DNA of 64,000 bases from a bacterium. Lineage in GTDB: Bacteria; Patescibacteriota; Minisyncoccia; UBA6257; WO2-44-18. The notes beneath the pieces are model-generated. The model was not told the origin of the DNA. It did no database searches and saw only the letters and a program-made list of their open reading frames with translations. This document shows positions 13,456-49,377 of this stretch, one piece after another; the first letter of the stretch is position 1; each line of letters opens with the position of its first letter. The stretch spans positions 20,404 to 84,403 of the forward strand of contig JAUSKF010000004.1 of assembly GCA_030646995.1 (NCBI GenBank), written 5' to 3'. The position numbers were made by a program, and so were the translations under genes.

Positions 13456-13496
13456 CTCGGCTACTTTTTGCTCTCTTACAAAAGGCTTGTTCGTAT

Positions 13497-13620
13497 TGCT
13501 TCTCGGACACAGAATAGCCCCACTCCAACGGTGGGGCTTTCTTCTCTCTCGGCGGTTAATCGTTCGTAAAATAATAACGAACGAACCAAGCTTAACCGCC
13601 TCCGAGATGTTCCTTAAAGC
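13497..13620 (+). repeat. Structured ~125-bp repeat element, copy A (family shared with 34014-34140 and 48568-48704)
   Basis: Shares CTCTCGGCGG-hairpin(GTTCGTTCG..CGAACGAAC)-CCAAGC..AACCGCCTCCGAGATGTTCCT core with copies B and C; 5' hairpin differs by compensatory changes. Confidence 0.7.
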
Positions 13621-13685
13621 AACACGACCAAGCCCCAAGACACCAAGAGAACAAAAAGTAGCCTCACTCATGTTGGGAGGCGTAG

Positions 13686-33663: not shown

Positions 33664-33942
33664 ATGGCAAAGAAATTGTATGTTGGTAACTTGCCTTACA
33701 GCGCTAACGACGAATCTCTAAAGGAGATGTTCGCAGCTGCTGGCAGCGTAGAGTCCGCTACCATTATCATGGATCGCGCCACTGGCCGGTCAAAGGGCTT
33801 CGGTTTCGTCGAGATGACGAATGACGAGGAAGCTACTAAAGCTATTGAAATGTTCAATGGCAAAGATATGGGTGGTCGCGCTCTCACTGTTAACGAGGCA
33901 CGTCCAATGGAGCCCCGCGCTCCTCGCGAGTCCCGCTACTAA
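33664..33942 (+). CDS. RRM-domain RNA-binding protein
   Basis: RNP-2 LYVGNL and RNP-1 KGFGFVEM; terminator hairpin at ~33957-33992. Confidence 0.8.
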   Translation: MAKKLYVGNLPYSANDESLKEMFAAAGSVESATIIMDRATGRSKGFGFVEMTNDEEATKAIEMFNGKDMGGRALTVNEARPMEPRAPRESRY

Positions 33943-33971
33943 GCGCGACTTACACAAAAACCGCTCTCGAT

Positions 33972-35105
33972 TTATCGGAGCGGTTTTTGGTTGCAGAACA
34001 CCCTACATCTTTCGGCCAGACAGCTTCTCGGAAACAGAATAACTTTTCTCCTGCGGAAAAGTTTTCTTCGCTCTCGGCGGTTGTTCGTTCGATTATATAA
34101 ACGAACGAACCAAGCCCAACCGCCTCCGAGATGTTCCTCAAACCAATCTGACCGAAAGATGGGTACTTCCGTCGACGGAAGTAATAAATTTAGCCTCGCT
34201 TTTATTTTATTCGCGTTCCCATGCCCCAACATCCCCAAATATGACTGCCGGGATTGCTCATTTGGATTCTCTTTCAATCTCCGGAACATTTTCCACTTTG
34301 TGACGAAGCGAATAACCCTATGATCCGGGAAATGCACCCAGCCGAGAAAATCCACTCCCGAAACAAGGGTCTTCAGAAATAACTTGTCTTTGTGAATGAA
34401 TAATTTGAGATTCTCCTCAAGGAAATCCTGAATTTTCGGGATTATTTCCACAAGTCGTTCCTTGTCCGGAGACAAAAACACAAAGTCATCGGCGTATCTT
34501 ACGTAATGTCGGGCTTTGAGTTTATGCTTCACGAACTGGTCAAATTGATTCATATAAACATTAGCGAATAACTGGGAAGTGAGATTGCCGAGGGGCAGAC
34601 CAAAACCCGGCTTGGTGGAGAAACTACTTATGACATTCTCTAACAGCCAAATTATTTTCTGGTCGGGAATATATGCCTTCAGAATTTTGAGAAGAATCTG
34701 ATGATTAATGCTGTCAAAAAACTTTTTGATATCACACTTTAATACCCAGCAGGTTTTGGTGTGATTTTTGCTAACTTTATATGCTATCGCTCGGAAACGA
34801 TTAAGCGCTCGATGGGTTCCCTTTTTGATCCGGCAGGAAAACGAATCGGCAAAGAAAGTTTTATCAAAAAATGGATAAAGCAATCGGTGAATGGCGTGAT
34901 GAACGAGACGATCGCGAACTTCCGCCTTGTGAATGATGCGTGGTTTGGGGTCGGCGATTCGGAATTGATAATAGCCGCCGTGACGGTATCTTTGACTTGC
35001 CAACTCCCCGTGAAGCGATAGAATGTTATCCATAAGATTGAAACCGAATTCCTGCACATCCTTTTTACCTCGCTTCCCCTTCAAGAATTCCTGCCAAGCA
35101 ACCAA
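33972..35105 (-). CDS. Diversity-generating retroelement reverse transcriptase
   Basis: RT motifs incl. YADDFVF (motif C), GNLTSQLFANVY (DGR-type motif 4 with SQ), VDFLGW; N-terminal region colinear with Bordetella-phage-type bRT; last ~60 codons read through repeat element B and are probably not genuine. Confidence 0.85.
   Translation of the reverse strand: MVAWQEFLKGKRGKKDVQEFGFNLMDNILSLHGELASQRYRHGGYYQFRIADPKPRIIHKAEVRDRLVHHAIHRLLYPFFDKTFFADSFSCRIKKGTHRALNRFRAIAYKVSKNHTKTCWVLKCDIKKFFDSINHQILLKILKAYIPDQKIIWLLENVISSFSTKPGFGLPLGNLTSQLFANVYMNQFDQFVKHKLKARHYVRYADDFVFLSPDKERLVEIIPKIQDFLEENLKLFIHKDKLFLKTLVSGVDFLGWVHFPDHRVIRFVTKWKMFRRLKENPNEQSRQSYLGMLGHGNANKIKARLNLLLPSTEVPIFRSDWFEEHLGGGWAWFVRLYNRTNNRRERRKLFRRRKVILFPRSCLAERCRVFCNQKPLR
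34014..34140 (+). repeat. Structured ~125-bp repeat element, copy B; overlaps 3' end of RT ORF on opposite strand
   Basis: ~90% identical to copy C (48568-48704 reverse complement) and core-identical to copy A. Confidence 0.7.
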
Positions 35106-35166
35106 AAGATTTTCAATAGAAATTATATCCTCAAAACTATGACGGAATTGAATTCTACCTATAACG

Positions 35167-35176
35167 CCCCCCCCCC
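35167..35176. repeat. Homopolymeric C10 tract in divergent RT/avd promoter region
   Basis: ACGCCCCCCCCCCAGCC between RT start (35105) and avd start (35191). Confidence 0.8.
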
Positions 35177-35190
35177 AGCCGATTTTTCCG

Positions 35191-35532
35191 TTGTTGCATA
35201 AAATAAAAGATGCTTACGCGCTTTGGTATTCCTACTACCAGATTCTACCAAAAACCCACCGCTACTCGCTCGGCCAGAAAATTGACTCTCTTTTTGTAGA
35301 AATTATAGAAACCGTGGCTGCTGCCGGCTTTATCGCCAAGGAAAAGAAGCTGGCATATTTAAGTTTGGCGATTATGAAAGTAGATACGCTAAAAGTTTTG
35401 ATGATGGTTCTCTGGGAGAATAAATCGCTGAACGATAAAAAATATATTCAAATATCTTTTAAAATAAGCGAACTAGGAAAAATGCTTGGCGGCTGGCTGG
35501 GAAAGATTCAGAAACAAAACTCTCCCCGCTAA
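35191..35532 (+). CDS. avd: Avd-like accessory variability determinant (four-helix-bundle protein, TIGR02436-like)
   Basis: 113 aa, basic helical protein with pattern resembling 23S-IVS/four-helix-bundle family; divergent to RT and adjacent to TR. Confidence 0.65.
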   Translation: MLHKIKDAYALWYSYYQILPKTHRYSLGQKIDSLFVEIIETVAAAGFIAKEKKLAYLSLAIMKVDTLKVLMMVLWENKSLNDKKYIQISFKISELGKMLGGWLGKIQKQNSPR

Positions 35533-35544
35533 AAAGCGGGGAGA
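35521..35544. other. GC-rich hairpin flanking TR (DGR hairpin/cruciform candidate)
   Basis: CTCCCCGCTAAAAAGCGGGGAGAG; avd stop codon lies in loop. Confidence 0.6.
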
Positions 35545-35555
35545 GAAATAGATAG

Positions 35556-35690
35556 ATTTGCGACGACCGAACACCCAGACGTTGTCGGGATTCCAGAAGT
35601 TGTCAGCGTTGCCGTTGTTCGCGTTGAGCCAATGCTCATCGCTATTATGCTCCACGTTGAACACGTTCGGGTTGCCGTTCGAGTCAGTTA
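35556..35690 (-). repeat. DGR template repeat (TR), Asn/AAC-rich
   Basis: ~135 bp; coding-strand reads ...NGNPNVFNVEHNSDEHWLNANNGNADNFWNPDNVWVFGRRK; 24 of 25 mismatches vs VR lie at TR adenines. Confidence 0.85.
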
Positions 35691-35935
35691 TATATAAGAG
35701 GCTGCCTATGCCACCGCCCATTGAATACTCTCTGGGTTGTATCGAATTCCGTACCTAAAGTACGATAGCCTCTTATACCAAGTATCTCTATTTTTTTAGA
35801 GTTCTGCGCGCGCCACTCTATCTCCAACCTTGATCAGAAACACACTCGACACGCGGATACTGGATTCGGCAGCAAGGAACCTTAGTCCCCCGCGTATTCG
35901 CCTAATACCAAAATTATATTAACATACGCTAAAAA

Positions 35936-35970
35936 CAAAAACCCCCGCGCTCGAAAGCGCGGGGACAAAG
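35936..35970 (-). terminator. Intrinsic terminator after DGR target gene; doubles as VR-proximal hairpin
   Basis: CCCCCGCGCTCGAAAGCGCGGGG with T-run on minus strand. Confidence 0.65.
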
Positions 35971-36008
35971 AGTCAAAGGGCCAGGTCAAAAGTTCCAAGG
36001 ACTAAGAG

Positions 36009-36764
36009 CTACTTGCGACGACCGAACACCCAGACGTCGTCGGGATCCCAGAAGCGGCCAGCGTCGCCGTCGCTCGCGTGGAGCCAATGCCCACCGCCAT
36101 CCGGCTCCACGCAGAACACGAACGGGTAGCCGCTCGAGTCAGAAATCGGCTCCATTCCGACCAGAATCCATTCCCCGTAAGGCTGGTCCTGGTATTGGAG
36201 GCGGAGCTGGGGGCCGACTTCGGCAGGGCAGCGATCCAAGCCAAGCTCTTTGGCTTCGGCGTAGATCTGCTCGCGAGTGCCGCCACTGGGAAGTCCCAGT
36301 TGGGCGACCGTCATCTTGACCAGATCGATCTCTATCTCCTTGGGGTTGACCGAGATCTTTTTCAGAATGTCGTTGCCCCAGTCAGAGACCCGGTTTTTCT
36401 TGCCGATGATGGCCTTTCGGAGAGCCTCCGGAGACGGATGCGTTCCCAGCTTGAGGGTCTTCCAGACAGGAAGAGCGGAAGAGCATCGAATCGGCTTGAT
36501 CTCGCCAACCCTGGCAATCGCCTGGTCGATTCGGTCGCAGAACTGCTGAAGTCCGGTGATTTTTTCACCGAGCTCAGAACGAAGCACCTCCAAATCATTC
36601 TTGTGTGCCTGCTTCGCTTCCGAAAGCTGGTTTTCCAACTCTCCGATTTTCTTCACCTCTTCCTTGGCCTCCTCGCAAACTTTCGTCAAATCCCCACTCA
36701 AGTCGACGTCTTCTTCAGACTTCTTTTTTCCGCTCACCGGAGCTCTCCTGAATTGGGTTATCAA
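36009..36764 (-). CDS. DGR variable (target) protein: N-terminal coiled coil, C-terminal ligand-binding domain ending in VR
   Basis: C-terminus ...GYPFVFCVEPDGGGHWLHASDGDAGRFWDPDDVWVFGRRK encoded by VR; perfect TTGACA-17-TATATT promoter upstream. Confidence 0.8.
   Translation of the reverse strand: MITQFRRAPVSGKKKSEEDVDLSGDLTKVCEEAKEEVKKIGELENQLSEAKQAHKNDLEVLRSELGEKITGLQQFCDRIDQAIARVGEIKPIRCSSALPVWKTLKLGTHPSPEALRKAIIGKKNRVSDWGNDILKKISVNPKEIEIDLVKMTVAQLGLPSGGTREQIYAEAKELGLDRCPAEVGPQLRLQYQDQPYGEWILVGMEPISDSSGYPFVFCVEPDGGGHWLHASDGDAGRFWDPDDVWVFGRRK
36012..36147 (-). repeat. DGR variable repeat (VR)
   Basis: Matches TR over ~135 bp with adenine-specific substitutions (AAC->AGC/TAC/TTC/GAC/CAC etc.). 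Confidence 0.85.
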
Positions 36765-36803
36765 TTTTTATCCGCCGAATAGCGGATTTGTGAACTGCCG
36801 TAA

Positions 36804-36832
36804 ATATAGCAGAGTTGAGGCTATTTGTCAAC
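36804..36832 (-). promoter_or_regulatory. Sigma70 consensus promoter of DGR target gene
   Basis: TTGACA-17-TATATT on minus strand; paralogous promoter at 38407-38436. Confidence 0.6.
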
Positions 36833-36862
36833 CCCAACCTTTGGCCCTCCTTAGGGGGCAAC

Positions 36863-36950
36863 GGGGGGGGATATTGACTTAGTCCAAATGGAACGCTATA
36901 ATGGGGATACTAAACGTGAAGGGCATCCTATATGGGTGCCCTTCGTTTTT
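36863..36950 (+). promoter_or_regulatory. G8 tract + TTGACT-17-TATAAT promoter followed immediately by intrinsic terminator (tiny transcript unit)
   Basis: G8 36863-36870, -35 36874-36879, -10 36897-36902, hairpin GAAGGGCATCCTATATGGGTGCCCTTC 36918-36944 + T6. Confidence 0.5.
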
Positions 36951-37573
36951 TATTCCATTTTTATACGCTCTCTAAGATATTCGAAGTCCCTGAAATCACT
37001 GCCTGCAAACTGCTTGATTTCTTTAGCAGTCCTCGCTCCTCTACCTAAAACCACAACCTCTTTCTTCTCAGATCGAAGATGTTTCAATACGGGAAGGAAG
37101 TCTCCATCGCCTGACAAAACAAGAACTCTATCAAAATTGTCTTTTTCTCTCATTAAGTGAAAGGCCATATCCACATCACAATTAGCTTTTCTTTTTGTGG
37201 AACCGTCATCTTGGTTATATAGCTTTACTGGTTTAAGAAAAAGTTTGTATCCGAACTTCTCAAGACGAATATAGAATTTAACTCTTTGAAGATGTCTACT
37301 GATTAAAGCGAGCTGCGCTTCATTGAGCTTCCTGTCTTTGTTCTCGGGTAGCTGTCTCAAATACTTCTCTAGCTCTTTTAGAGGAACGGTCTCATTGGAT
37401 TGGTAATCATATGGAAATTCATAAATTTCCACGCCGCCAAAATAAAAAACCGTATCTACTCCATATTTTTCTTTTAGATACTCAAGGAGTTTTTTGTAGT
37501 CTATTTTCCAACCTAAACTCTTTTCGCCGCCATAAAAAAGATTGGATGCATCCACAAAACCATATGCTTTCAT
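36950..37573 (-). CDS. NYN-domain (LabA-like, PIN-fold) ribonuclease
   Basis: GFVDASNL..., ANCDVDMAFHLM, VLSGDGDF motifs of PF01936; AT-rich, sandwiched between the two DGR target paralogs. Confidence 0.7.
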   Translation of the reverse strand: MKAYGFVDASNLFYGGEKSLGWKIDYKKLLEYLKEKYGVDTVFYFGGVEIYEFPYDYQSNETVPLKELEKYLRQLPENKDRKLNEAQLALISRHLQRVKFYIRLEKFGYKLFLKPVKLYNQDDGSTKRKANCDVDMAFHLMREKDNFDRVLVLSGDGDFLPVLKHLRSEKKEVVVLGRGARTAKEIKQFAGSDFRDFEYLRERIKME

Positions 37574-37654
37574 GCGTCTATTTTATAATAAAAGCTCGCA
37601 ATAAAAAAGCCCTCATGAAGCTAGCTTCATGAGGGCGCCCAAGTGTCCAAGGGC

Positions 37655-38341
37655 CTAAGACTTGCGGACGGCGAGGAAACGATAGCTGCCGTACCAATCG
37701 CTGCCGAACCAGTAGAGATTGAGCTTCCGAACGTCGAACCAGTACAGATACGGCACGCGGCGGTTGCCGAACGAGCCCCGCCAAGGATTCCCGAGCCCGA
37801 CGATCGGATATTGCTTGTGCTCGTCGGGATGGGCCATCTGGTAGTGGAGGAGCGTCTTCAGGGAGGCCGGTTCGAAGCCGTCACGCTTCATCTCGGCGAC
37901 CACGTTGTCGGAATTCATGTCCCGACTGAAGTGATACATCTTGCACTCCAGCGTTTCCGTGCCGTCCGTCTTCTCCTGATTGAAATGCTTTTCCGTGATG
38001 TCGGAGTTGACGTAGCTAAACCCGGCTTCGCCGATGAGCTGAGAGATGGACTTTCCGTAGTTCACGATCAAGGAATTGTCCGGAGGCTTTCCGGATTTCG
38101 CGCGACCGAACTTGTCGATCACTGCCTGAATCTTCTCGGCCGTCGCTTTCGCGCTGGCCGCCACCTGCTCCATCTCCGACTTGGCTTCCTGAAGAACCTG
38201 CTCAGCTTCCTGCGACATCGTGTCTAGCTTGCCCTTGAGATCCTTATTGATCTCTTCCAAAGCAGCAATCACCGGGTCCCACATGTTCTGGCTGTTCTCC
38301 ACTGCCTCCTCCACGTCGGAAGACTTCTTTTCTTCGCTCAC
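37655..38341 (-). CDS. Paralog of DGR target protein (coiled-coil N-terminus; C-terminal region diverged from TR)
   Basis: Colinear with target 1 (…YQ..Y.IVG.G.P… then W/F/G-rich tail ending RKS); near-identical promoter/5'UTR to target 1 (TTGACA-18-TACATT). Confidence 0.6.
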   Translation of the reverse strand: MSEEKKSSDVEEAVENSQNMWDPVIAALEEINKDLKGKLDTMSQEAEQVLQEAKSEMEQVAASAKATAEKIQAVIDKFGRAKSGKPPDNSLIVNYGKSISQLIGEAGFSYVNSDITEKHFNQEKTDGTETLECKMYHFSRDMNSDNVVAEMKRDGFEPASLKTLLHYQMAHPDEHKQYPIVGLGNPWRGSFGNRRVPYLYWFDVRKLNLYWFGSDWYGSYRFLAVRKS

Positions 38342-38541
38342 GGCAATCTCCTTGAATTGGGTTTTCAGTTATTTTCCGCTTAATTGCGGACTTCAGAACT
38401 GCGGTAAATGTAGCACACTTTAGGCCTATTTGTCAAGAAGTCTGTTTAAGCACGCTAAAACCTCCTCAACGTCAACACCGCCTTCTCTAATAGACGTAAA
38501 ATCTATGATTGTTTCCCAGCCCTCTTCTTGTTTCTTTGACT

Positions 38542-38775
38542 CTAAAAATTTAGCCATTTGTCCTTTGGAATACCGGACTGCGCAATCATACCCTTGAAAG
38601 TTCGAGGTTTAAAAGTTTTTGATGAATGAAACGGTACGCAAACTTGCATCAATTTTCCCTCATAGACTCCGGTGAAAAAATGATGACTCCCCTCCGTATG
38701 ATTCAGGCGAAAACCGTGCTCTTTTAAAAACTCTACAACATCATGAAACGTCCAATTAAAAACCTTTCTAGGCAT
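38542..38775 (-). CDS. hicA: HicA-family toxin (mRNA interferase)
   Basis: 77 aa, YcfA/HicA pattern (…HTEGSHHFF…). Confidence 0.7.
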   Translation of the reverse strand: MPRKVFNWTFHDVVEFLKEHGFRLNHTEGSHHFFTGVYEGKLMQVCVPFHSSKTFKPRTFKGMIAQSGIPKDKWLNF

Positions 38776-39109
38776 GCACCAAGCTACGGTTACTCATGCT
38801 GCCAAAAGTAAACACGTTTGACGGCACATCTTCTTTATTAGACTTTTTTACCTCCAATGAGTTCCACATATTTTCATATTCGGAATCAGTTTTTTGATTC
38901 AAAATATGATTGATTCGAGCTTTGGCCTTTTTAGCTGATTTTAAATATCCACGGGTGGCTTCAAGCAAAAGGAACAGAGCCTCATCGGGCGTGTCGCCCG
39001 ATTCCACAATATTAAATTCCAAACCAACGCCATACCAAACACCCTCTTCGCGAAAGATTATATACCTTAAAGACCCTTTTTGCAGAGTATTTTGATGTAG
39101 TTTAGTCAT
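38768..39109 (-). CDS. hicB: HicB-family antitoxin (N-terminal HicB/UPF0150 domain)
   Basis: 113 aa, overlaps hicA start by 8 bp. Confidence 0.6.
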   Translation of the reverse strand: MTKLHQNTLQKGSLRYIIFREEGVWYGVGLEFNIVESGDTPDEALFLLLEATRGYLKSAKKAKARINHILNQKTDSEYENMWNSLEVKKSNKEDVPSNVFTFGSMSNRSLVHA

Positions 39110-48382: not shown

Positions 48383-48425
48383 TGATAGATATTCTATATC
48401 AGTCTGAGGACAAAGTCAAAGGGCT

Positions 48426-48547
48426 ACGGGAATAGCCCCTCGGAAACGGCATAATTTGCTTCCGGCGAGCAAATTTGCCTCTCCCTCGCTTCGCCACTAT
48501 TAAGACCAAGCTGGCGAAGCTCCGGCATGTTCCTCGAAACTATTCCC
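48426..48547 (+). repeat. ~125-bp hairpin-rich element L with 8-bp terminal inverted repeats (GGGAATAG/CTATTCCC)
   Basis: ~85% identical to reverse complement of 49429-49556; internal stems show compensatory changes between copies. Confidence 0.7.
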
Positions 48548-48567
48548 TTCGCTCTTTTTAAGAGTAA

Positions 48568-48704
48568 GGCTAGACAGCTTTAAGGAACATCTCGGAGGCG
48601 GTTGTGCTTGGCTCGTTCGTTATGTCCGAACGAACAGCCGCCGAGAGAGAAGGAAACTTTTCCGCAGGAGAAAAGTTATTCTGCTTCCAAGAAGCTGTCT
48701 GGCC
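48568..48704 (-). repeat. Structured ~125-bp repeat element, copy C, with 13-bp terminal inverted repeats (GGCCAGACAGCTT/AAGCTGTCTAGCC)
   Basis: Reverse complement ~90% identical to copy B at 34014-34140. Confidence 0.7.
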
Positions 48705-48768
48705 GAGCCATTGACTTGAAAATACTGTAGGCGTACTTTTAAGGCAGCTACTTTTCAAGGAAAAGCCG

Positions 48769-49377
48769 ATGAAAAGCTTCATTGCTCTACTCGTTTCCGC
48801 GACTGCGATTTTTGCCTATCCCGACGAAGAAGTCAAAGAGGAAGCAAAGGCTCCTAACATCGAAGGCTGGACGGTTTCCGATGCGGATCCGCCCAAGCAC
48901 GGCTTCCAGGCCGTGCGTATGAGCAAGACCGGCACCGCCCTGAAGCCCGACGATGCACGCCAGCCCGTGATGGAAAGTGTTTTTTATGAAGACCCGGATA
49001 ACCCCGGCGAATACGGCGGCATCTACCGCTCCAAGAACGATAGGGGTGAATGGGTGACCTTCGCTAAGGTCTGGGGCATCAAAAAAGTTGAAGGTAAATA
49101 TATGCAGGATGAAGACAGGGACGGCAACGGCGTACCCGACGGCAACGGCGAGATGAACTATGCAGTTCTCGACGAAAACGGGAAATGGGTTCCCGGCTTG
49201 CCCGGAAAAACCATCATGGCCTGGAAGACCGTCTGGAACGACTCGGATACGAAAGACTATCCAGTCGGTTTCAGCTACTGCCTGTGTTATGAAGATGAAG
49301 GCGACGCCAGCGGTCTCTTTATGAAGACCGGAAATGTCTGGATTGAAAAGCCGGAAGCCGAAAAAGACGAAGAGTAA
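48769..49377 (+). CDS. GC-rich secreted acidic protein, unknown function
   Basis: Signal peptide MKSFIALLVSATAIFAY; Asp/Glu-rich; terminator at ~49381-49410; flanked by inverted copies of element L/R. Confidence 0.55.
   Translation: MKSFIALLVSATAIFAYPDEEVKEEAKAPNIEGWTVSDADPPKHGFQAVRMSKTGTALKPDDARQPVMESVFYEDPDNPGEYGGIYRSKNDRGEWVTFAKVWGIKKVEGKYMQDEDRDGNGVPDGNGEMNYAVLDENGKWVPGLPGKTIMAWKTVWNDSDTKDYPVGFSYCLCYEDEGDASGLFMKTGNVWIEKPEAEKDEE

Follow-up and report, generated by a model that had tools for sequence, protein, structure and literature searches.

What does a gene that looks like the target of a diversity-generating retroelement (DGR) represent when the template beside it does not fit? The question is raised by a stretch of 64,000 nucleotides (the window in what follows, whose positions are used throughout) from a Patescibacteriota bacterium, contig JAUSKF010000004.1 of assembly GCA_030646995.1, positions 20,404 to 84,403 of the forward strand. 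The window holds a canonical DGR, all elements of which lie on the minus strand save avd, comprising a reverse transcriptase (RT1), the Avd accessory protein, a template repeat (TR1) and a target gene, T1, whose variable region (VR1) differs from TR1 at 21 of 130 nt, with 20 of the 21 differences at TR adenines. A further gene of DGR type, T2, lies beyond T1 and was described in an initial annotation as a second, paralogous target with a near-identical promoter, whose C-terminus no longer matches the TR and which may have been retired or may be served by a second TR outside the window. T2 is a putative orphan DGR variable-protein gene: its VR belongs to a class different from that of T1, and no cognate TR was found among the two recovered from its metagenome-assembled genome (MAG), TR1 in the window and TR2 on a matching contig.

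No significant similarity between the T2 and T1 proteins was found by BLASTP (best E = 4.5), and the profiles of the two families are collinear in hhalign over 127 columns, although weakly so (E 0.0099, probability 4%), which does not sustain the earlier description of the genes as paralogous with a conserved middle block. The shared architecture that had also been proposed does hold at the level of fold. AlphaFold2 models (mean predicted local distance difference test score 91.8 for T2 and 82.1 for T1) both consist of a helix of about 75 residues and an alpha/beta domain, with strands (E) and helices (H) in the order E-H-(H)-E-H-H-E-E-E-E; in T2 the N-terminal helix spans residues 3-80 and is followed by a C-type-lectin-like domain at residues 90-228. 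The top 50 matches listed for T2 in a Foldseek search of the PDB were essentially all C-type lectin or lectin-like domains (probability up to 0.99, target TM about 0.5), the best matches of T1 were also C-type lectin domains, and 8oks_B was matched by both. DGR variable proteins are classically built on a C-type lectin scaffold (PMC5758913, PMC5006420). As modelled, T2 is not a close or recent paralog of T1, yet has the same architecture at fold level. Pfam searches with T2 and T1 returned sub-threshold coiled-coil noise only, and the T2 N-terminus is acidic, with no hydrophobic stretch and no classical signal peptide apparent on inspection. T2 would be a ligand-binding protein with a lectin surface carrying about 12 formerly or currently variable residues, and probably oligomerises through its N-terminal helix.

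The assignment of T2 to DGR-type target genes, as first annotated, is borne out by this fold and by relatives with verified TR/VR pairs. Twenty-nine protein homologs of T2 were detectable, all from sources of the candidate phyla radiation (CPR)/Patescibacteria type, and the 90% protein cluster of T2 has a single member. The family shares the core motif VNSDITEKHF and the tail GSVWR..G.R.VPYL....R.L.L.W...W...RFLAVRK, in which hypervariable columns are interspersed. At locus L008 a TR lies 350 bp downstream of a T2-family gene, all 17 of the mismatches between them falling on TR adenines, and a metagenome scan with a 14-sequence subset of the family yielded 80 further loci. In 32 foreign loci a T2-type gene is followed, 260-430 bp downstream, by a TR whose mismatches are almost exclusively from adenine to any base (A>N; 24/24, 25/25, 22/22 and 20/20 in example pairs), and most verified pairs have 0-2 non-A mismatches. 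Homologs of RT1 are present in 26 of 91 screened family loci and homologs of the window Avd in 32 of 91. The T2 family is a genuine and canonical family of DGR targets, and the RT/Avd cassettes serving it are homologous to that of the window. TR-less copies are common in the family: among 74 evaluable genes, 42 lack a nearby TR.

TRs of the T2 class carry the leader of about 50 nt that precedes TR1 (GATACAnCCCnGAGAGTATTCAAnGGGnGGTGG), as well as its downstream hairpin and T-run. The leader (GATACAnCCCnGAGAGTATTCAAnGGGnGGTGGnAT.GA; search motif GATACARCCCNGAGAGTATTCRANGGGNRGTGG) stands ahead of TRs of both VR classes (window 35711-35743; L003, L008, L044-L118 and L123), and the hairpin and T-run follow TRs of both classes just before the end of the opposite-strand avd. 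Together they look like a conserved DGR RNA architecture, and their presence in both classes suggests that the same type of RT, Avd and RNA serves both.

The T2 tail itself bears the marks of a VR. Its 3' end is adenine-poor, as had been noted (adenine fraction 0.10-0.18 in the last 150 nt versus 0.23-0.35 upstream), and the T1 VR shows the same pattern, including the absence of third-position adenines. All 12 hot (variable) codons are of the form NNY, compared with 49% in the rest of the gene, and all five of the degenerate hot codons end in a pyrimidine against a background of 54%. A further comparison is with a sister gene on another contig (169,423 bp) of the same MAG, P0002 (MDO8467148.1, Q7S83_03370), the core domain of which is 84% identical to that of T2 while 13 of the last 46 residues differ. 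The exchanges in the tail are radical (F/N, R/Y, S/Y, V/D), whereas those in the core domain are conservative. When both tails were aligned to 28 verified family TRs, with P0002 compared at the protein level only, the frequency of asparagine in the TRs averaged 0.59 at positions that differ between T2 and P0002 and 0.10 at identical ones (Mann-Whitney P = 6e-5). The placement of the differences on TR-asparagine columns supports past diversification of the T2 tail by adenine mutagenesis, apparently from a TR of its own class, and contradicts the idea of an ordinary paralog that was never diversified, the outcome which the initial annotation had named as refuting.

The VR of T2 closes with a sequence resembling the initiation of mutagenic homing (IMH) element. 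An 18-mer of this end closes both VR and TR of the verified L008 pair and also ends T2-family genes in five other CPR genomes; these loci were selected by that pattern, so its frequency in the family is not derivable from them. A scan of a genome collection with the T2 VR end (CGTTTCCTCGCCGTCCGCNNG) returned six family loci, including the L008 pair, and about 29 chance hits in GC-rich genomes.

The flank beyond the T2 VR holds no GC-rich inverted repeat other than the terminator, and carries CTTGG octamers instead. CTTGG occurs 52 times in the 70-nt flanks of 29 verified VRs and not once in the flanks of their TRs, compared with a background of 0.09 per 70 nt; the octamers are found at 25 of the 29 verified VRs, and T2 has them too. 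These arrays may be a target-side signal that tells VR from TR where a GC-rich inverted repeat is absent. In most target VRs of this DGR clade the arrays begin 4-16 nt past the stop codon, with a spacing of exactly 8 nt in 44 of 77 intervals. The motifs are kept in 29 of 40 TR-less copies, and the T1 flank has an array at 35960-36008.

A template for this tail was sought in the window and in a second DGR of the same MAG. The T2 3' end has no other match in the 64 kb by blastn-short, and the TR leader motif occurs there once, at TR1. Between the T2 VR and TR1 there is no similarity above chance; the best local score of 10 is reached by 28% of shuffles, and the alignment of the last 20 nt or so of T2 to the TR that had been reported earlier does not exceed chance. 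A second DGR was identified in the same MAG through its reverse transcriptase, RT2 (P0157, MDO8467246.1), which shares 82% identity with RT1, retains its YADD motif intact and is encoded on the contig of P0002, about 98 protein accessions away. Two other RT matches labelled '[bacterium]', P0178 and P0192, were excluded as they come from other MAGs. A Logan contig (L123; SRR13727527, 1-1551) contains an ORF, P0155, that is 100% identical to RT2, together with a TR leader, TR2 and, on the opposite strand, Avd2. TR2 encodes GSVWQHWNGNRNVAYLWSNADKRNLNLNWFENDWNDNYRFLAVR and, by its sequence, clearly belongs to the T2 class. It is 69% identical to the T2 VR over 122 nt, with 38 mismatches, 17 at TR adenines and 21 elsewhere, and a 3-nt indel, and both T2 and P0002 have N, P, S, P and Y where TR2 has the adenine-free codons for S, V, W, A and W. 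T2 is no closer to TR2 than to TRs of unrelated genomes, an ordinary family-level similarity. As judged from these alignments, neither TR1 nor TR2 can have made the present T2 sequence by adenine mutagenesis, and T2 and P0002 need a template with their own scaffold that is neither of the two. The search for homologs gave no third T2-family protein or asparagine-rich template gene from this MAG. The earlier suggestion of a second TR outside the window was right in so far as the genome does contain RT2, Avd2 and a TR of the appropriate class, although this TR, TR2, does not template T2; the description of a tail that no longer matches TR1 fares less well, since T2 is of the other VR class and holds no trace of TR1.

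How T2 came to be without a template can be read in several ways. In the preferred one, T2 would once have been diversified by a TR of its own scaffold, this TR would since have been lost, and T2 would now be a retired binding protein of fixed specificity that is still expressed. We infer this because two RT/TR cassettes are known and neither fits, no further family gene was recovered from the MAG, and orphans are frequent in the family, and we regard its chances as evenly balanced. Several points weigh against it. T2 keeps its IMH-like end, its CTTGG octamers and its NNY hot codons without third-position adenine, and both its ORF and its expression signals are intact. T2 and P0002 agree at all 33 non-hot VR residues even though their core domains are only 84% identical, and this agreement would also fit recent rewriting from a common TR. 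The family includes a TR for which no RT was found (L008, by tblastn in the 8-kb locus) and remote targets that share an unseen TR (P0010, P0022 and P0007). L123 is linked to the MAG by an RT that is 100% identical in amino-acid sequence, and not by a DNA match with the contig of the MAG. Finally, a third TR might lie elsewhere in the genome, for example in the canonical position downstream of P0002, which we consider a serious possibility although short of an even one.

Such a third TR, carrying the scaffold of T2 and P0002, would make T2 an active remote target, with the template used in trans by RT1/Avd1 or RT2/Avd2 and both genes still being rewritten; the most plausible site is 260-430 bp downstream of P0002. 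We rate this active state, too, as a credible reading, though one we do not favour. It accommodates the position of the T2/P0002 differences on TR-asparagine columns with all 33 other VR residues identical, the pyrimidine-ending hot codons, including all five degenerate ones, and the intact IMH-like end and octamers. Precedents are the L008 TR, with no RT found in its locus, and the three dispersed paralogs that agree fully in their 3' flanks and lack a TR within 10 kb, and the leader and downstream hairpin common to both TR classes mean that one type of RT/Avd could serve both. However, each of the two RTs already has its own TR, neither of which fits T2, the homolog search produced no third family protein or asparagine-rich template gene from the MAG, and the scaffold residues are the most conserved columns family-wide, so that their identity in T2 and P0002 may reflect purifying selection. 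An extended version of this reading, in which T2 and P0002 are live targets of a stand-alone, RT-less third TR in a genome with three TR scaffolds, two VR classes and two trans-acting RT/Avd pairs, the CTTGG arrays form a landing pad at the VR and a poly-G tract near RT1 (described below) acts as a phase-variable on/off switch of diversification, is unlikely as a whole.

The proposal that T2 is the target of TR2, its mismatches having arisen by non-canonical mutagenesis or recent drift of TR2, is largely refuted and we give it very little credence. The two share a VR class, their last 21 nt are alike save one base, they are 78% identical over the 3' 68 nt, and several non-A substitutions have been reported in CPR DGRs (PMC5758913); however, 21 non-A mismatches and an indel in 122 nt lie far over the reported maximum of 11 (PMC5758913), most verified family pairs have 0-2, the five adenine-free TR2 codons are at odds with T2 and P0002 alike, and TRs of unrelated genomes are just as close. 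Still less probable is that T2 is a lectin-fold paralog of the ordinary kind on which no DGR ever acted, the adenine-poor tail being a matter of amino-acid composition. No cognate TR lies in the 64 kb, and a composition rich in W, F, G, Y and R can indeed produce adenine depletion, but this reading is opposed by 32 verified TR/VR pairs in the family, by radical T2/P0002 differences on TR-asparagine columns alongside conservative core differences, and by the VR-specific 3' flank motif of T2. That T2 is a diverged former target of TR1 can practically be dismissed, for although it lies only 2.5 kb from RT1 and has its promoter module in common with T1, its VR does not resemble TR1 above shuffles and belongs to another class with its own TRs elsewhere.

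Whichever state T2 is in, by its predicted signals it is an intact, complete and separately transcribed unit, with its own promoter, hairpin, ribosome-binding site (RBS), start and terminator. According to the ORF list and the sequence, the GTG start codon at 38341 follows an RBS, AAGGAG, at 38348-38353. The sigma-70-like promoter reads TTGACA-18-TACATT (38436-38407) with a TG-extended -10 box, that of T1 reads TTGACA-17-TATATT (36831-36803), also TG-extended, and the 5' untranslated region (UTR) of both contains the hairpin TCCGC-loop-GCGGA. In these respects (the 228-aa ORF with its GTG start and RBS, both promoters, the common CCGC..GCGG hairpin) the initial annotation was accurate. It also called the upstream regions almost base-for-base the same, while allowing that this might be an artefact; the similarity is real and unique within the window but lower in degree. 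From the -35 box to codon 9, 96 of 123 columns are identical in a global alignment (78%), the local score of 68 compares with a maximum of 20 in 2000 shuffles, and blastn-short finds 81% identity over 84 nt as the sole non-self match in 64 kb. Past codon 9 the similarity ends abruptly. The module has no match in 122 loci fetched from other genomes, and the ortholog of T1 (P0031, 78% protein identity) keeps only generic hexamers and an RBS, with the hairpin absent; the T1 module is 73% identical to that of T2 (91/125 columns) but 47% identical to the sequence upstream of the ortholog (55/117 columns). On these alignments the module is specific to this genome, and it would have been copied between T1 and T2 by duplication or gene conversion. 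Such a copy would give both variable proteins identical expression signals, so that the strong promoter and leader that drive the live target T1 would drive T2 as well.

Two other accounts of the upstream module were considered. A relic of recent whole-gene paralogy was set aside given the lack of significant BLASTP similarity between the proteins, and a lineage-wide leader was rejected on the absence of matches in the foreign loci (0 of 122) and of the hairpin in the T1 ortholog. An Rfam scan of 33800-38700 and 48400-48800 gave nothing near the gathering thresholds, and on this basis the 5' UTR common to T2 and T1 is not a known RNA family.

Table 1. Features of T2, T1 and the local DGR, in window coordinates.
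Feature	Position	Strand	Details
T2, DGR-type variable-protein gene	37655..38341	minus	228 aa; GenBank MDO8466862.1, locus tag Q7S83_01845
T2 expression module	38315..38436	minus	-35 38431-38436, -10 38407-38412, hairpin 38375-38390, RBS, GTG, first 9 codons (predicted)
T2 VR-like region	37661..37792	minus	codons 184-227; 12 hot codons, all NNY; no third-position A
IMH-like VR end of T2	37661..37681	minus	CGTTTCCTCGCCGTCCGCAAG; encodes RFLAVRK
Two 8-nt-spaced CTTGG motifs	37639..37654	minus	GCCCTTGGACACTTGG; directly past T2 stop codon
T2 intrinsic terminator	37609..37636	minus	12-bp stem, then T run; strong
NYN-domain gene (predicted RNase), between T2 and T1 promoter	36950..37573	minus	Pfam NYN, E = 5e-18
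T1 copy of expression module	36711..36831	minus	78% identical to T2 copy over 123 columns
T1, target served by local DGR	36009..36737	minus	242 aa; real start GTG 36737; VR1 36013-36142
TR1 and conserved leader	35558..35743	minus	TR1 35558-35687; leader 35711-35743; sole TR leader in window
Avd accessory gene of local DGR	35191..35532	plus	Pfam bAvd, E = 2.2e-12
RT1, reverse transcriptase	33972..35105	minus	MDO8466858.1; Pfam RVT_1, E = 1.6e-26

T2 is a further CPR DGR variable protein with a C-type lectin fold, and both non-adjacent targets and genomes with several DGRs have already been documented (PMC5758913). Like the known C-type-lectin DGR proteins Mtd of Bordetella phage BPP-1, TvpA of Treponema denticola, archaeal AvpA and the CPR targets (PMC5758913), T2 has a C-terminal VR of about 45 codons on a C-type-lectin-like scaffold with hot positions derived from AAY codons, an IMH-like 3' end, an RT and Avd in its genome, and a family with TRs showing A-to-N mismatches. 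Unlike them, it lacks a cognate TR among the two recovered from its genome, it consists of a minimal domain of about 135 aa after a long acidic helix and, on inspection, shows no signal peptide, and it has 8-nt-spaced CTTGG repeats past the VR rather than a GC-rich inverted repeat. Remote targets are known from Treponema denticola and from 45 of 372 DGRs (PMC5758913), and T2 resembles them in that its VR gene is not beside a TR and in that its family includes dispersed paralogs on one VR scaffold; however, what defines a remote target is a TR in the same genome from which it differs by A-to-N changes only, and neither TR1 nor TR2 stands in that relation to T2. What the evidence supports is membership in a DGR family and past diversification, not T2 as a current target of either TR. 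More than one DGR is present in about 10% of DGR-bearing complete genomes (PMC5758913). The genome studied here is similar in having two RT/Avd/TR cassettes with RTs 82% identical, but differs in that the cassettes carry TRs of two different VR classes.

Standard annotation of DGRs, which matches TR to VR, would miss T2 and other TR-less copies such as the 42 of 74 counted above, which record the turnover of variable-protein repertoires in CPR bacteria. The CTTGG octamer array and the TR leader are candidate cis signals of target recognition and could be used to locate targets and TRs without recourse to such matching. If T2 is indeed retired, it represents a once-hypervariable binder frozen at one specificity, under a strong promoter copied from, or common with, that of a live target.

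The coexistence of cassettes of two VR classes is also seen in a groundwater contig, L047 (3512-5527 and 9782-11791), that is the mirror image of the window, with a live T2-class cassette near a T1-type domain and an RT fragment. Its RT, 67.5% identical to RT1, adjoins Avd and a full-length, asparagine-rich T2-class 'template gene' with the TR inside the ORF. About 5 kb away, a gene for a 639-aa protein ending in a T1-type domain is followed by a 97-nt RT fragment, and this distal part is apparently a decayed T1-class cassette. The layout with a template gene may be shared by L051, L058, L082 and L100. The comparison of L047 with the window indicates that cassettes of the two classes coexist, swap positions and leave fixed copies behind.

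Dispersed family members were found in another genome, GCA_040961635.1 (L001-L005), where at least six T2-family paralogs are scattered between housekeeping genes. In three, P0010, P0022 and P0007, the VRs are 85-88% identical to one another and the 60-nt 3' flanks do not differ at all; neither a TR nor an RT lies within 10 kb, and by this pattern the three evidently share one unseen TR. A TR-like fragment with the conserved leader in the same genome (L003:10883-11017) was considered as the template of the paralogs of that genome and rejected, as its mismatches are not limited to adenines.

In the neighbourhood of T2, the NYN-domain gene that separates it from T1 fills the spot, 260-430 bp downstream of the target, where a TR of the T2 class normally sits. 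A HicA/HicB-like pair lies upstream (38542-39109, minus strand), consisting of a HicA toxin gene (Pfam E = 8e-12) directly upstream of T2 and, beside it, a 113-aa ORF placed as a HicB-type antitoxin would be.

Three copies of a structured, roughly 125-nt repeat occur in the window (34003-34135, minus; 48582-48710, plus; 13493-13625, minus), and the repeat has no Rfam match. From these three copies only, RNAalifold predicts a structure of 36 pairs, 7 of which show compensatory double changes. At its 3' end the RT1 ORF continues in frame into one copy; the RT domain ends near 34200, and RT residues ~297-365 are read-through of the repeat.

Between the divergent avd and RT genes lies a G tract (35167-35176 in the window and 554-563 in L123), which is kept across the L044-L119 loci as G9 (n = 11), G10 (n = 8), G11 (n = 2) or G12 (n = 1) and replaced by a (CT)n repeat in two loci. 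With the G10 found in the window and in the second DGR, an upstream ATG misses the frame of the conserved RT N-terminus (GGGVIGRIQFRHSFEDIIS) by one base, and in the relative P0151 the upstream ATG is in frame. The tract may be a phase-variable or slippage switch that controls expression of the RT, or else an assembly error in the homopolymer.

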